A stretch of DNA of 38,410 bases, taken from a virus (taxonomy: Duplodnaviria > Caudoviricetes). Both the position numbers and the translations under genes were made by a program. Below are positions 16,713-30,800 of this stretch, in pieces. The notes under the pieces are model-generated. The model did not search any database, was not told the origin of the DNA, and saw nothing but the letters and a program-made list of their open reading frames with translations. Position 1 is the first letter of the stretch. Each line of letters opens with the position of its first letter. Location of the stretch: the IMG/VR virus record IMGVR_UViG_3300033076_001195, positions 1 to 38,410 of that record; one strand, given 5' to 3'.

Positions 16713-16880
16713 ATGGAGCAATTATTTTTAACAATCATTGTTTTGCTTATTAGCATTGCGATTATCTTTACTAACCCGTTTCTCGGTGGGCTTATTATAC
16801 TTGCTTTTTTAGTGCTTTATTTAATTCCAATTTTGGTTGAACAAATAAAAGAAATTAAAAATAATATTGACAATAAATAA
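16713..16880 (+). CDS. Small two-TM membrane protein (55 aa)
   Basis: MEQLFLTIIVLLISIAIIFTNPFLGGLIILAFLVLYLIPILVE... Confidence 0.55.
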   Translation: MEQLFLTIIVLLISIAIIFTNPFLGGLIILAFLVLYLIPILVEQIKEIKNNIDNK

Positions 16881-16894
16881 TCTATGATTACATT
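16867..16894 (+). promoter_or_regulatory. sigma70-type promoter upstream of structured RNA island 1
   Basis: TTGACA-N16-TACATT, followed by a 15-bp direct repeat AAACCTTATTTTTTT (16900-16914, 16919-16933). Confidence 0.55.
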
Positions 16895-16970
16895 GAAACA
16901 AACCTTATTTTTTTAAATAAACCTTATTTTTTTGGTAATATATTTAAAATATTGTTTTTTCATAGTTTTA

Positions 16971-17237
16971 GGGGGGAGTAGTTAGCCCCCCGTCTCACTC
17001 TCTTATTCTCTTAATGTCCTTTTCATCGGGGGTTGCTACATTAGGAGAATTGGATAGTGAAAAGCCTACACTGCTTGATAAGATACAGCGGTAATGAACG
17101 AAGTAAATTAGCGGAGAAATCCAGCTAACAGTCGCAAGACTGCTATCCTTTCTTTTCATTTTAAACTTGGTGCGAGCAAGTTTATATATATGAAGTGTAG
17201 CCCGCACGCTACACTTCGCCAAAATCAAAGTGCGGAG
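16971..17237 (+). ncRNA. Structured non-coding RNA or 5' leader (island 1)
   Basis: GC-enriched intergenic region with many stems, GAAA and GCAA tetraloops, and a multibranch junction closed by GGATAG/CTATCC. Confidence 0.6.
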
Positions 17238-18641: not shown

Positions 18642-18902
18642 ATGAAATATCCAGCAATAATTAAAAAAGAAAAAGACGGTAAATATAGCGTATCCTTCCC
18701 CGACTTCAAAGGCGGTAAATTTGGCGTATGCGTAAGTTGTGGCGATACTTTAGAGGAAGCTAAAAGTAATGCAGAAGAGGCTTTACGGCTTCATGTTGAA
18801 GGATTACTTGAAGACTCAAAAGAATTTGGTTCGCATTTAGATTGGTTTGTAAAGTTTGGTAAATTACCAACTCCATCAATCGGAATTAATTTCAAATTAT
18901 AA
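18642..18902 (+). CDS. hicB: HicB-family antitoxin (N-terminal domain only)
   Basis: MKYPAII..EKDGKYSVSFPDF...CVSCGDTLEEA..NAEEALRLHVEGL...LPTPS. Confidence 0.8.
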   Translation: MKYPAIIKKEKDGKYSVSFPDFKGGKFGVCVSCGDTLEEAKSNAEEALRLHVEGLLEDSKEFGSHLDWFVKFGKLPTPSIGINFKL

Positions 18903-19593: not shown

Positions 19594-20200
19594 AAGCTTT
19601 ATAATCCACAAAGATAGTTTGCATATATTGAAAGATATGACAAATGAACAAGCTGGAATTTTTATTAAAGCTATAGATTTTTATCAACAAAATAACCAAT
19701 TACCAGAATTAGATTTTGGTTTAAAGATGGCAATAATTCCTTTTATTAATCAATTTGAAAGAGACGAGGAAAATTACAAAAAAACCTGTGAAGCTAGGCG
19801 TGAAGCTGGTTCAATTGGTGGCAAGCAAAAGGTAGCAAATGCTAGCAAATGCAAGCAAAAGGTAGCAAAAGTAGCAGATAATAAGAATGATAATAAGAAT
19901 AAGAATGATAATGATATTAAGAATGAAAATGATTTACCAATCTTTATAAATAAAGATTTATTTAATTCTTTTATTGAGATGCGAGTAAAGATAAAAAAAC
20001 CATTAACAGAAAAAGCAAAAGAATTATTAATAAAAGATTTAACTAAAATTGAAAATAATAAAACTGGTGATTGCAATATAGCTTTAGAAAATTCTATTAA
20101 GAATTCTTGGCAAGGAGTATTTGAGCCAAAACAAAATAATTTTAACAACAATCAAAACAAAACACAGGGGGTATCAGAATGGAAGCGTATAATCAGTTAA
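19550..20200 (+). CDS. Replication initiator / replisome organiser (DUF6291-like N-terminus)
   Basis: KSFIIHKD...MTNEQAG..IKAI, AGSIGG, low-complexity linker, F..MR..IKKPLT and SIKNSWQGVF; directly upstream of DnaB. Confidence 0.75.
   Translation: MKEIQELMTNHTKRKSFIIHKDSLHILKDMTNEQAGIFIKAIDFYQQNNQLPELDFGLKMAIIPFINQFERDEENYKKTCEARREAGSIGGKQKVANASKCKQKVAKVADNKNDNKNKNDNDIKNENDLPIFINKDLFNSFIEMRVKIKKPLTEKAKELLIKDLTKIENNKTGDCNIALENSIKNSWQGVFEPKQNNFNNNQNKTQGVSEWKRIIS
19821..19932. repeat. Iteron-like repeats and AT-rich tract, probable replication origin
   Basis: GCAAGCAAAAGGTAGCAAA at 19821-19839 and 19851-19869, extra TAGCAAA copies, then GATAATAAGAAT repeats, all inside the initiator gene as in lambda O. 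Confidence 0.6.
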
Positions 20201-21558
20201 ATCAAGAAATTTGCAATGTTGATGCAGAGCAATCATTATTAGGAACTATAATCCTTAATAATTATTATTGTTATTCAATTCAAGATATTCTTAAACCTGA
20301 GCATTTCTATTATACTCCGCATGAAAAAATTTATTCGCATATTCTTAAATGTTTAGATTCTTCGACAATCGCTGATAAAATAACACTAAAACAACTTTTT
20401 GAAACAGATGAGGATATTAAAAAAATCGGAGGTATTAAATACATTTCAACTCTATTGGCTTATGCTTCGAGTTTTGGAGTAAAAGACTATGCGAATATAA
20501 TAATCGATTGCTGGAAGCGTAGAGAGTTAAAAAAACATATTGATGAGTTATTAAAAAATATTTCTAATCCGTCAAATTCGTTTCATGAACTATCAAGCAA
20601 TCTTTATCAAAAAATAGAAAGTCTTGATATTGATGAGCAAACTCAACCGCAACCAATCGCTAATGTTGTTGCAGAAAAGTTAAATGATTTAATGTATAAA
20701 ACCAATAATGAAATTGTTTCAACTGGTTTTAGTGGATTAGATGAGAAAACAGGAGGATTTAATAAGGGTTATCTTGTTATCATTGCTGGTCGCCCTTCTA
20801 TGGGTAAAACTACATTTAGCCTATGTTTAGCAAAAGAAATTGCTAAAAATGACCATGTTTGTTATATTTCAATTGAAATGACTTCTAAGCAGATTGTTTC
20901 AAAGATTCTTGGAAATGAAGCTAGCATTAATCTTAAAAAAATAAAACTAAACGATGTTAGCATTGAAGAATTAAAAATTGCCGGCAATGCTGGCGAAAGA
21001 ATTGGAGAATTAAAATTTAATATTGATTACCCAACAAAAGGAATAACAATAAGAAGCTTGAGGGCAAAGATTAAAAGGCAGGTTGATAAATTCAAAACTA
21101 AAATTGTTTTTATCGACCATCTAGGAAAAATTAAATCAGAAGGCAAGACTTGGAGCAAAAACGAAGAGGTATCACAAATAACCAATTCTTTAAAAGACAT
21201 CGCAAACGAGCTAGGAATAGTTATAGTTGTGTTATCTCAATTATCAAGGGCAGTTGAGCAAAGACAAGATAAAAGACCTCAATTAAGCGATTTAAGAGAT
21301 TCTGGGAGCATAGAGCAAAATGCAGATATTGTTATGTTTTGTTTTCGCCCAGAATATTATCTTGAAAGAGCTATGCCAAGCAAAATTTATGAACCAAACG
21401 ATTATGCTGATTGGGAGCGTGAATTAAGCAAAGTCAGGGGATTATGCGAAATTATAATCGCTAAAGCTAGAGAAGGAGAACCACAAACCGCTAGATTTAC
21501 TTTTAATGGTAGCTACGGAAGATTCACTGAAATACAGGAGCAAAATGATTCATATTAA
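20179..21558 (+). CDS. dnaB: Replicative DNA helicase
   Basis: AEQSLLG, IIAGRPSMGKTT, FIDHL, LSQLSRAVEQRQDKRPQLSDLRDSGSIEQNAD, IIAKAREG. Confidence 0.95.
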   Translation: MEAYNQLNQEICNVDAEQSLLGTIILNNYYCYSIQDILKPEHFYYTPHEKIYSHILKCLDSSTIADKITLKQLFETDEDIKKIGGIKYISTLLAYASSFGVKDYANIIIDCWKRRELKKHIDELLKNISNPSNSFHELSSNLYQKIESLDIDEQTQPQPIANVVAEKLNDLMYKTNNEIVSTGFSGLDEKTGGFNKGYLVIIAGRPSMGKTTFSLCLAKEIAKNDHVCYISIEMTSKQIVSKILGNEASINLKKIKLNDVSIEELKIAGNAGERIGELKFNIDYPTKGITIRSLRAKIKRQVDKFKTKIVFIDHLGKIKSEGKTWSKNEEVSQITNSLKDIANELGIVIVVLSQLSRAVEQRQDKRPQLSDLRDSGSIEQNADIVMFCFRPEYYLERAMPSKIYEPNDYADWERELSKVRGLCEIIIAKAREGEPQTARFTFNGSYGRFTEIQEQNDSY

Positions 21559-22457: not shown

Positions 22458-22523
22458 ATGGAAGTAGCAATTGGTTTTGTAATAATGATAGCTTTATTTG
22501 AATTGAGTAAATTAACATGGTGA
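22458..22523 (+). CDS. 21-aa hydrophobic peptide coupled to the receiver gene
   Basis: Strong AAGGAG SD; MEVAIGFVIMIALFELSKLTW; its stop overlaps the next start. Confidence 0.45.
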   Translation: MEVAIGFVIMIALFELSKLTW

Positions 22524-22828
22524 TTTTAATAATTGAAGATTGCCGATTTATGACCTTTATTTGGAAACATCAAGCTAAAGAAGCGGGACATATAACAACT
22601 TGTGTTGAATACAAGCATGAAGCACTCGAATTATTAAGAAATAATAACTATGACTTAATCATATTAGATAATAATTTAAACGGTGAATTAGGGCTAGATA
22701 TTGCGAAAGAAATAAAATACATTACTAAAACTAAAATAATATTATCCAGTGCCGATGATGACCTTGTCGGCAATGAATTTATTGATGATGTTATTTGTAA
22801 AAAACAACTTAATTTTAAAAATTTATGA
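22517..22828 (+). CDS. Single-domain response regulator (receiver domain)
   Basis: ILIIED, EALELL...YDLIILD (phosphoacceptor Asp), GLDIAKEIK, IILSSA, DDVICK. Confidence 0.85.
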   Translation: MVILIIEDCRFMTFIWKHQAKEAGHITTCVEYKHEALELLRNNNYDLIILDNNLNGELGLDIAKEIKYITKTKIILSSADDDLVGNEFIDDVICKKQLNFKNL

Positions 22829-23034
22829 CTATGACATGGCAACCAATAGAAACAGCACCAACAGACGGAACCAAAATTTTAGTTTGTCACACAAACTATT
22901 ATAGCCCTATAACTGCTCAGTGGTCTTCTTATCATCCTAATAAAAAAGGAGAAGAAACTTGGCGGGAAGATGGTAGCAAATATAAAGTGAATCCAACTCA
23001 CTGGATGCCATTACCCGAAAAACCAACAATTTAA
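22825..23034 (+). CDS. DUF551-family protein
   Basis: WQPIETAPTDGTKILV...PTHWMPLPEKP. Confidence 0.85.
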   Translation: MTMTWQPIETAPTDGTKILVCHTNYYSPITAQWSSYHPNKKGEETWREDGSKYKVNPTHWMPLPEKPTI

Positions 23035-23063
23035 AACTTTTTTAAAAATAATTAAAATAATTC

Positions 23064-23092
23064 TTGACTATTAATCAAGCCTTGTTTATATT
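23064..23092 (+). promoter_or_regulatory. sigma70-type promoter for the RNA locus
   Basis: TTGACT-N17-TATATT. Confidence 0.7.
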
Positions 23093-23099
23093 GATTGCA

Positions 23100-23360
23100 T
23101 CACCAATAAAAAAACTAAGTCAAGCTTTAAGACTTAATTTAAAATAGAAGCAAAATGCGATTTATTTATAAATCGGAGCGGGTAAGCGTCTATATCGCAA
23201 GATACGAATTAATAAGCCTTACTAGCTATATTAATTTACCAGCCGATGGACTTTGGCATGAGGGAATATAGAGGGCAAAACAAGGCGGTAATTCAGTTAT
23301 TGATTTTATCGTGAGGTGCAGGAAGAAATCTCGAAAGAGTATGCGGGGCTTTGTTAATAA
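23100..23360 (+). ncRNA. Structured RNA, 5' domain of the tRNA-enclosing locus
   Basis: No ORF; stems CGATTTA/TAAATCG and AACAAGGC/GCTTTGTT; GNRA hairpins TATC-GCAA-GATA and CTC-GAAA-GAG. Confidence 0.6.
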
Positions 23361-23364
23361 ATAC

Positions 23365-23435
23365 GGGGGTTAGCTATAGAGCTTCGCTTTATTGAAAAAT
23401 AGAGGATTGAGGGTGCGAATCCTTCACCCCCACCA
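23365..23435 (+). tRNA. Aberrant tRNA-like element (Phe GAA-like, possibly pseudo)
   Basis: GGGGGT/ACCCCC 6-bp acceptor plus A-CCA, T-arm GAGGG-TGCGAAT-CCTTC, collapsed D-arm, CTTTA-TTGAAAAA-TAGAG arm. Confidence 0.55.
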
Positions 23436-23452
23436 AAATCGTAAATATAAAT

Positions 23453-23529
23453 ATCAGATTAGCTCAGTAGGTTAGAGCAAAACACTCATAATGTTTGGGT
23501 CGGTGGTTCAAATCCATCATCTGATACCA
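23453..23529 (+). tRNA. tRNA-CAT (elongator Met or Ile2)
   Basis: Full cloverleaf: ATCAGAT/ATCTGAT, AAACA-CTCATAA-TGTTT, GGTTCAAATCC, encoded CCA; paired 1:72, so not initiator. Confidence 0.93.
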
Positions 23530-23530
23530 T

Positions 23531-23607
23531 TGGTAGATAGCTCAGCTGGATAGAGCAACAGCCTTCTAAGCTGTAGGTCAGGGGTTCAAATCCCTTTCTA
23601 CCAACCA
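23531..23607 (+). tRNA. tRNA-Arg(TCT)
   Basis: TGGTAGA/TCTACCA, ACAGC-CTTCTAA-GCTGT, GGTTCAAATCC, encoded CCA. Confidence 0.95.
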
Positions 23608-23624
23608 AAATCGTAAATATTAAA

Positions 23625-23885
23625 CTCGGCACGGGTAAAGAAGAGTGCAGAATCACACGCGGGAGTGCATCTGAAACAGTGGTGTGTATAGTGTGTCCTT
23701 GCCCAAAACCGCTAACGCAGGCAAGGTGATAGTTGACATCATATCGGGTAGCTGAGGAATGCTCAAATGTCAACAACCCAGCAGTTAGCCTTCTGTAAAA
23801 AGGCGGACAATCAAATGGAAAGACAGTGCTTTGGCAGTGGAGAGACACTAAATCTGTGAAACAGATGACAGCTCGGAAAGACGGC
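23625..23885 (+). ncRNA. Structured RNA, 3' domain with possible pseudoknots
   Basis: About 50% GC; stems CCTTGCC/GGCAAGG and GTTGACAT/ATGTCAAC; loop GCTAAC complements GTTAGC; serial GARAGA and TGAAA hairpins. Confidence 0.75.
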
Positions 23886-23920
23886 AATTATTAACTTAAT
23901 TATTAACTTAATTTAAAACT

Positions 23921-24157
23921 ATGAAAACATTTAAAATAACGCTAACGGGAGAATTTAACGAAACACATGAAATTTTTGTTTTAAGCTCTATTGATTTATC
24001 AAATTATGAAAAACATAAAGACCGTATAAATAAAATTATCATCAAAGATAATGATGGTGAGGGGGAAGATTTAGATTATTATTTAAATTACGGAAAGTTT
24101 AAAATAGAAGAGTTTAAACTCGATGAAACAAATCTTATTAACGCAGATAATTTATAA
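23921..24157 (+). CDS. Hypothetical protein
   Basis: TTAACTTAA...AAACT-ATG leader. Confidence 0.6.
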   Translation: MKTFKITLTGEFNETHEIFVLSSIDLSNYEKHKDRINKIIIKDNDGEGEDLDYYLNYGKFKIEEFKLDETNLINADNL

Positions 24158-30606: not shown

Positions 30607-30635
30607 TTGACTTCTAAATTAATCCAATTTACAAT
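30607..30635 (+). promoter_or_regulatory. sigma70-type promoter with no downstream ORF
   Basis: TTGACT-N17-TACAAT. Confidence 0.65.
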
Positions 30636-30640
30636 AAAAA

Positions 30641-30800
30641 CATACTAGACGCTTAAAAAACGAGCTAGTCAAATTGCTAGAAATGGCTTCACTAATCAAG
30701 CGGTTAAGTCTAGATAATTATATTTAATGCTGGACCTCTGGAACGAGCAAGCCCCCATACCATCATCGCTTTGGTAAGTTTTCAAGTGGGGGCAAAATAA
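30641..30800 (+). ncRNA. Candidate small RNA (island 3)
   Basis: Begins right after the promoter; stems CTAGAC/GTCTAG, GCCCCCA/TGGGGGC, TACCA/TGGTA. Confidence 0.5.

Follow-up and report, generated by a model that had tools for sequence, protein, structure and literature searches.

What does a phage encode where a promoter is followed by structured, protein-free DNA and by tRNA genes: one large RNA enclosing the tRNAs, or several small RNAs set side by side? The question arises at 23064-23885 of the window analysed here, a stretch of 38,410 nucleotides which is the whole of a 38.4-kb virus record with a CheckV completeness figure of 100%. The genome encodes portal, terminase, major head and ejection proteins, a lambdoid-type replication set (O-like protein, DnaB) and a RecT/RecE-like pair, with the RNA locus placed between DnaB (20179-21558) and RecT (25614) in the rightward accessory region. 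A preliminary description had read this locus as a compact, promoter-driven RNA resembling the large GOLLD class, with tRNAs sandwiched between two structured domains. All the motifs it named are present where it placed them, and a promoter-led, protein-free, structured and undescribed RNA locus is indeed found; the single compact RNA enclosing the tRNAs is not. The features to which the text refers, all on the + strand, are as follows.

23064..23092, +, predicted sigma-70-type promoter, TTGACT-N17-TATATT, 10 of 12 consensus matches
23117..23152, +, m0, predicted small H-type pseudoknot (36 nt), stem 23117-21/23131-35, loop 23124-28 with 23147-51
23156..23237, +, M1, removable unit made of hairpins, with loops 23181-86 and 23218-23 predicted to pair
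23238..23258, +, m1b, 5-bp hairpin with a 6-nt loop, folding z -2.5
23259..23357, +, M2, RNA built on a three-way junction, the junctions conserved and the 5' arm containing GAGGG, not in Rfam
23365..23435, +, tRNA mimic, folding z -2.9
23436..23452, second copy 23608-23625, +, spacer D, AT-rich direct repeat after CCA ends
23453..23529, +, tRNA with CAT anticodon (called Met), ARAGORN, Rfam 68.8 bits
23531..23607, +, tRNA-Arg(TCT), ARAGORN, Rfam 72 bits
23626..23652, +, linker A, 4-bp hairpin with an 11-12-nt purine-rich loop, 5' side of cargo RNAs
23654..23781, +, cargo c1, an exchangeable and rarely found RNA with three predicted hairpin domains
23782..23804, +, linker B, 5-bp hairpin with a 7-nt loop, 3' side of cargo RNAs
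23805..23887, +, c2 and linker C, three GGARAGAC-capped hairpins (c2 itself two) and one UGAAA hairpin
23888..23920, +, AT-rich translation leader belonging to the gene that starts at ATG 23921, carrying ATTAACTTAA
25614..27586, +, RecT-like annealing protein (PHROG 148, E 1e-39) and RecE-like exonuclease (PHROG 434, E 1e-14)
about 30607..30800 (RNA 30607-30778), +, module E, stand-alone copy with its own predicted promoter

The promoter ranks among the top 3 of 37 promoter-like sites in a scan of 20-27 kb, a site count at chance level (37 against 34.1 +/- 5.6), so that the scan by itself performs no better than chance; what sustains the promoter is that both hexamers are kept in 28 variants (the window and its relatives) while the spacer varies. 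Downstream, + strand ORFs of at least 50 aa are absent from 23035-23920, and no + strand terminator lies between the units, the latter as previously described, nor does one separate the row from the ORF at 23921. The leader of that ORF carries a 10-nt AT-rich word, ATTAACTTAA, of which the window contains 8 copies, each on the + strand, against 0.64 expected; these copies (13373, 13668, 13790, 18912, 21979, 23890, 23902, 25591) precede start codons, and the word likely acts either as an enhancer of translation or as an additional site of crossover. A preQ1-I riboswitch reading of 23085-23124 was rejected (14.4 bits against a cut-off of 39, E 6.3); part of the stem's 5' strand falls on the -10 box, and the pairing is broken in relatives.

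Further observations concern the surroundings of the row. The same accessory region holds a lone HicB-like antitoxin gene (PHROG 497, 18642-18902) and, at 22517-22828, the gene of a 103-aa protein that matches PHROG 731, of unknown function, and resembles by eye a stand-alone receiver domain. At about 16870-17230 (+) there is a second stretch devoid of + strand ORFs of 50 aa, preceded by a promoter-like site; it contains GC-rich hairpins, together with a short motif that recurs in the cargo of one array.

GOLLD (RF02032) and ROOL (RF03087) share with this locus their phage origin, the absence of protein genes, a position near or around tRNA genes and a similar total length (10.1101/2024.12.08.627333). 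Searches with RF02032 gave 0 matches at E<=10 in the whole genome and in 22950-24000, and RF03087 gave 0 matches at E<=10 in 22950-24000, as did a second search whose controls were also empty. Of the Rfam families, only tRNAs reached the cut-off, whether the full window was searched at that threshold or the locus at E<=10; the same search on 20 related arrays returned tRNAs and weak tRNA shadows, and no unit of the row other than the tRNAs is present in Rfam 15. Folding of the two proposed domains, 5' (z -0.67) and 3' (z +0.36), is no better than that of shuffled sequences, a first hint that neither is a single fold, and the locus as a whole behaves similarly (z -0.92). BLAST against 50,697 annotated phages gave 5 short chance-level matches for the 5' part and 0 for the 3' part.

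The same site was compared in related genomes. Relatives fetched by RecT alone comprised 15 loci, 7 of them with 85-97% RecT identity and 6 of these with the site in view. All six hold an RNA row there, five of the six behind the same promoter, and the content is different in each: linker B is present in 5/6, M2 in 3/6, and c1 and c2 in 0/6, with tRNAs ranging from Asn in one and two Met in another to Ser plus a Pro call in a third and none in the other three. One relative is without the whole 5' part (L122), one has M2 as its only unit (L125), and one has two CAT tRNAs and linker C (L128).

A broader set of 40 arrays was examined, most of them fetched through a module pattern, which biases module counts upward, and delimited by script with rough boundaries; 16 of them, the window included, have both promoter and end in view. 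These 16 complete arrays present 15 orders of the window's modules at rough lengths of 279-1251 nt, and c1 and c2 occur in 1 of the 16, namely the window itself. Contigs from DNA runs skip one unit at a time, with exact ends: M1 (23152>23238), the mimic (23362>23447), the cargo between A and B (23650>23782) or everything after B (23804>23898). Order changes too, with A before M1 (L196), the mimic after the tRNAs (L201) or C before A (L167), and one array (L214) consists of M2 alone behind the promoter, lacking linkers A, B and C. Small protein genes lie inside some arrays (L213, L222, L257), which indicates that the site may tolerate any cassette.

Module E illustrates the same independence. 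It has a stand-alone site in the window, common to L122, L123 and L125, and is found between linkers A and B in the arrays of L153, L170 and L213; its 11 variants have one stem with several double changes and a hairpin loop that can pair with an upstream strand. The units are thus separate entities, the linkers coincide with the breakpoints, and base pairs covary in M2, M1 and the linkers. The locus is very probably, as judged by comparison of these sequences, a swappable row of about ten RNA units with a cassette architecture.

The linkers A, B and C are hairpins of 20-30 nt with A-rich loops and covarying stems. The stem of linker A occurs as GCAC/GTGC, GCCT/AGGC, GCTC/GAGC and ACTC/GGGT. 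About half of the 30 matches to the linker-A pattern are chance matches in protein-coding sequence. Many unrelated cargos have A on their 5' side and B or C on their 3' side. In L213 linker A is chimeric, its 5' and 3' arms belonging to different types, the outcome expected of a crossover within the linker. Linker B, whose stem has double changes in L247 and L260 and single-pair breaks in the L123-type and L249, is abutted by 23 different sequence types; an exact copy lies between tRNA genes of a 174-kb phage (L179, about 1201-1223) without A or cargo, and another directly follows a promoter (L197). The stem of linker C varies as C-G, G-C and U-A. Linkers B and C are mostly the last elements before the leader of the next gene.

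Little can be said of hosts from the distribution of these elements. The 14 runs in which the window is best represented are labelled freshwater (8), estuary (3) and aquaculture (2), with 1 unlabelled, and among GTDB genomes linker B occurs in only 4 short contigs (2 Rickettsiales MAG, 1 Fonsibacter, 1 Peribacteria), DnaB matches in three linker-B-holding genomes reaching 37-41% at best. Two short contigs of one Rickettsiales MAG (L272, L273) bear linker B and module E, a host hint only.

M2, on its sequence variation, is a solid new RNA family. It was collected with a pattern in which the junction bases were fixed and, of the closing stem, only the two inner pairs, giving 72 loci (16 viral, 56 metagenome). 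Of these, 11 that looked by eye like GC-rich chance matches were removed prior to alignment; collapsing duplicates left 39 distinct sequences, aligned as 38 plus the window. The closing stem of 8 bp corresponds to the AACAAGGC/GCTTTGTT pairing of the preliminary description, which is strongly supported: double changes occur at 6/8 pairs, answering the call for covariation among homologs, and about 99.7-99.8% of 507 cells are paired, against only 38-44% in slid controls. Cells changed on both sides number 83, against 23.5 in shuffles, and no fewer than five independent types of stem can be told apart, although related sequences inflate the double-change counts. The 'GTGA tetraloop' once placed within this stem is instead the M2 junction, its closing C-G being broken in 11/39 sequences. 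A covariance model, R1, scores the window at 83.7 bits, the window being part of its training set, and the members at 65-84 bits, while six of the dropped loci gave about 20 bits in two cases and nothing at E<=0.1 in four.

M2 also turns up in the tRNA clusters of unrelated phages, where no other module accompanies it. Among 20 distant M2 loci, a tRNA is in the locus in 8/20, at a distance of 9-22 nt in 4/20, and not in view in 12/20. In unrelated phages (L216, L217, L219, L227, L239, L240, L255, L269), M2 lies inside or close to a tRNA cluster, and its strand is invariably that of the tRNAs. BLAST of a distant M2 against the 50,697 annotated phages gave 1 short chance-level match.

The units preceding M2 are smaller and have fewer variants. 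The second stem of m0 pairs as U-G, U-A and C-G across 6 variants, and double changes relative to the window are absent from the close set; small pseudoknots such as m0 may be reminiscent of type III antitoxin mimics. M1 shows double changes at 23209/23234 and 23213/23230, both in one run contig, and is exactly deleted (23152>23238) in DNA-run contigs and in L137, L172, L175 and L190. The GCAA tetraloop reported earlier varies among GNRA loops in 5/6 relatives. In m1b, one pair occurs as G-C, G-U and A-U.

The three tRNA or tRNA-like units of the preliminary description comprise two true tRNAs and a third unit that is only tRNA-like, and CCA is encoded on all three. The third, referred to here as the mimic, is uncalled by ARAGORN and scores 19.4 bits with the Rfam tRNA model, against a cut-off of 29. 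Its branch consists of a 6-bp acceptor stacked on a 5-bp T stem and ends in ACCA; the T loop has G at position 55, the D loop has 4 nt, and a 7-bp arm capped by GAAA replaces the 7-nt anticodon loop. Measured against a tRNA, it carries a 4-nt (or 8-nt) loop of variable length; it also has 11 bp and not 12 and lacks the D-loop GG, so that recognition by RNase P is not assured. The 3' discriminator with CCA and a 7-nt T loop with U54-A58 are kept in 6/6 variants, in which 130/130 stem cells are paired, with 3 one-sided changes, all pairing-neutral, and 0 double changes. The mimic is exactly deleted (23362>23447) in two DNA runs, and its arm stem recurs with another 4-nt loop in a further tRNA-like unit (L201, L171). 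A strict pattern scan for the mimic gave 0 matches, and the variants found otherwise differ at a fixed position of that pattern.

The two copies of spacer D are 91% identical over 23 nt, and related arrays hold 0 to 4 copies. Further tRNA-derived units lie beside spacer D in L170, L192, L198, L261, L268 and others; these have long acceptor stems and no CCA. GG is missing from their D loops, G55 is frequent in their T loops, the anticodon arm is replaced by large inserts that vary, and a palindromic AT-rich spacer flanks them.

The cargo 3' of the tRNAs is the part that differs most. A single and partial homolog of c1 (L149) was found among loci L122-L275, a c1 scan gave 23 matches with 0 homologs by eye, and c1 and c2 fold at shuffle level; a strict pattern scan for the 3' end gave 0 matches. 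The CCTTGCC/GGCAAGG stem described previously has one double change (23701/23722) in one contig and one break in a low-depth contig. For the possible GGGT/ACCC pseudoknot, one tolerated change (23776) is all that is seen in the few homologs. The GCTAAC/GTTAGC pseudoknot is doubtful, because GTTAGC is part of linker B, with its G covarying with the linker's own 3' end (L247, L260), and because 19/23 upstream types are without GCTAAC; a contact of four pairs may nevertheless exist in c1. This word occurs within 130 nt upstream of linker B in 4/23 types, against 2.6% by chance; one of the four is the window and two (L177, L222) bear an upstream GTTAGC of their own. In L177 and L222 the cargo before linker B is a long AT-rich hairpin with a loop complementary over 7 nt to an upstream loop of the same cargo, likely a loop-loop contact.

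Hairpins of the GGARAGAC type, in tandem, stand directly before ribosome-binding sites in many unrelated phages; the loci include L003, L006, L008, L020, L022, L029, L039, L041, L085, L114 and others. A three-hairpin scan gave 121 loci, many of them protein-coding repeats, with no homolog of the 3' part, and Rfam on 20 loci with the linker C hairpin found one tmRNA and no match to the hairpin. The row was also compared with known ribozymes and their catalytic core motifs: no Rfam match to the hammerhead, twister, pistol, hatchet, HDV-like or hairpin families was found in the window or in 20 related arrays, and a hammerhead reading of c1 was rejected, the CTGANGA at 23752 having no partner strands in register.

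How such a row might work can be proposed as a sequence of steps. With one promoter and no terminator, we infer that the row is one transcript, which would run on into ORF 23921. Host RNase P and 3' processing enzymes would cut this transcript at the tRNA and tRNA-like units; RNase P is described as cutting tRNA-like structures in longer RNAs and in phage regulatory RNAs (PMC4919922), and cuts at the three tRNA-type units are proposed because tRNA-like folds are RNase P substrates. The cuts would free a 5' block, the mimic, the tRNAs and a 3' block, with D, A, B and C perhaps marking or protecting further ends, and processing into separate RNAs is, on this basis, probable. Exchange of units may be as precise as it appears through the short shared linkers acting with the RecT/RecE-like pair 1.7 kb away, in the manner of the PeSL elements considered below, the pair being a candidate engine of the shuffling. 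The freed RNAs would provide spare tRNAs and decoys against RNA-cutting or RNA-sensing defences of the host. Phage tRNAs are described as rescuing infection from tRNA-cutting defences (PMC11464382, PMC11555353, PMC10264068); rapid turnover of accessory cargo in the early region fits a conflict with host defence, and a mimic that keeps the acceptor end and CCA while lacking a usable anticodon would be well suited to act as bait. A host-directed decoy role for the RNA units is put forward tentatively, at somewhat under an even chance. The explanation as a whole, a swappable row cut to pieces which supply spare tRNAs and counter-defence decoys, is evenly poised.

Contigs from RNA runs cover M1-m1b in 4/4 runs, the runs having been picked by those very words, and in three of the four the only further cover is of tRNA look-alikes. 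One run (X15) has contigs that also cover protein genes. Such contigs give no ends or levels, so that absent cover of c1 is uninformative, and the shares of X16-X20 are too small to speak for habitat or expression.

These observations also bear on what else the locus might be. A single compact, ornate RNA of GOLLD type, with 5' and 3' domains around the tRNAs, would suit the location and length, yet is scarcely credible: neither GOLLD nor ROOL matches at E<=10, units reorder and stand alone in relatives, the GCTAAC/GTTAGC knot uses a G covarying with the 3' end of linker B, and the 3' cargo is the least conserved part of the row, opposite to the 3' region of GOLLD, described as universally conserved (10.1101/2024.12.08.627333). 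It is likewise very improbable that the row is a neutral junkyard, a tolerant site where decayed tRNAs and stray hairpins gather without function. The mimic does resemble a tRNA-Phe that has lost part of the D loop and gained one base (the arm being readable as an 8-nt loop), its variants differ in loop length, and the shuffle-level folding of c1 and c2 points the same way; against this stand the excess of double-change cells in M2 over its shuffles, the double changes in M1, c1 and the linkers, the 3/3 mimic stem substitutions that preserve pairing, the recurrence of its arm stem under a different 4-nt loop, and the kept promoter hexamers. For M2, M1 and the linkers, a junkyard origin is unlikely.

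Two other readings could coexist with the swappable row and remain live rivals. The row may be mainly a cis-acting leader in which A, B and C are boxB-like protein- or polymerase-binding signals for read-through or message stability, with the cargo riding along. B or C is as a rule the final element ahead of the downstream gene's leader; copies of the C hairpin in tandem lie in front of ribosome sites in many unrelated phages; the row continues into ORF 23921 with no terminator between; and all three linkers carry A-rich loops on covarying stems. This reading is nevertheless unlikely, for B also lies between tRNAs in the 174-kb phage and right after a promoter in L197, L214 holds none of the three, no N-like protein was found by PHROGs among 51 proteins scanned, and the upkeep of many unrelated covarying RNAs (M2, M1, E) is left unexplained. 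Alternatively the units, M2 first, could be new self-cleaving ribozymes, selfish or processing elements beside tRNAs. M2, of about 90 nt, has a multistem junction, a fixed core and covarying stems, comes near the candidate profile of 50-80 nt described in PMC10085705, lies 9-22 nt from a tRNA in 4/20 distant loci, and has a precedent in the theta ribozymes beside phage tRNAs (PMC10879173). The invariance of its core is, however, partly a product of the search pattern, 12/20 distant loci have no tRNA in view, no Rfam ribozyme family matches the window or 20 related arrays, and 10/10 similar candidates failed to cleave in the tests that PMC10085705 describes, which leaves self-cleavage distinctly unlikely.

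The swappable row may be compared with several known systems. It differs from GOLLD and ROOL in having no model match and no conserved 3' domain, and in units that shuffle and stand alone. The tRNA region of T4 likewise yields small RNAs, RNAC and RNAD, of role stated as unknown (PMC3014915); there, two RNAs are fixed, whereas here many unrelated RNA families are swapped at conserved linkers. The PeSLs of the T4-type phages RB49 and phi1 are short conserved recombination points at which neighbours are inserted, deleted or swapped, leaving chimeras (PMC2839356), and a conserved element at the breakpoints and chimeric copies are found here as well. PeSLs are, however, described as promoter-terminator units of about 100 bp around protein genes (PMC2839356), unlike the 20-30-nt hairpins around RNA units under one promoter; the row has one strong promoter and no + strand terminator, so the elements do not each bear their own. 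Polycistrons of irregular tRNAs (allo-tRNA, Mukai et al.) are rows of non-canonical tRNA-like units, some likely non-translational, near toxin-antitoxin genes, and keep 12-bp acceptor branches and anticodons (PMC5389517), in contrast to the mimic, with 11 bp and no 7-nt anticodon loop, and to most units of the row, which are not tRNA-like. In mascRNA/menRNA and the C4 antisense RNA, a tRNA-like fold marks an RNase P cut in a longer RNA (PMC4919922); the row has no Rfam match to C4 or related families, and cleavage here is only proposed. Theta (minimal HDV-like) ribozymes are small structured RNAs adjoining phage tRNAs, described as starting no more than 5 nt from the 3' end of a tRNA and as nested double pseudoknots (PMC10879173), and no unit of the row is so placed or folded. 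The locus is best likened to a phage tRNA operon with small RNAs, shuffled in a PeSL-like way, with several new RNA families in it. The literature searched contained no description of these motifs or of RNA cassettes shuffled in an array; six motif strings are absent from 6 supplementary files of the largest viral RNA screen, PMC10690425, whose further files 1, 2 and 4 may list matching models, and the strings are absent from one supplement of PMC10085705.

As a warning for annotation, a long ORF-free phage region with tRNAs may mimic a GOLLD-type RNA in one genome and yet be mosaic. The accessory regions of phages are examined almost exclusively with proteins in mind, while the variable cargo here is RNA. 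Since natural shuffling marks the ends of the units, it supplies a list of new RNA families that are testable singly: M2, M1, m0, module E, the CCA-less and anticodon-less tRNA mimics, and the 23 types adjoining linker B. A speculative and rather improbable extension is that the site is the equivalent, in RNA alone, of an anti-defence island or integron. Such a library would recombine and comprise dozens of small RNAs unrelated to one another, perhaps decoys, tRNA mimics and new ribozymes, all freed from a single transcript and each directed against a different defence, with the hairpins serving for processing or protection and as crossover points. The findings bear on the roles of small RNAs in phage tRNA clusters, those of T4 RNAC and RNAD among them (PMC3014915), and on whether RNA decoys against RNA-targeting defences are widespread in phages.
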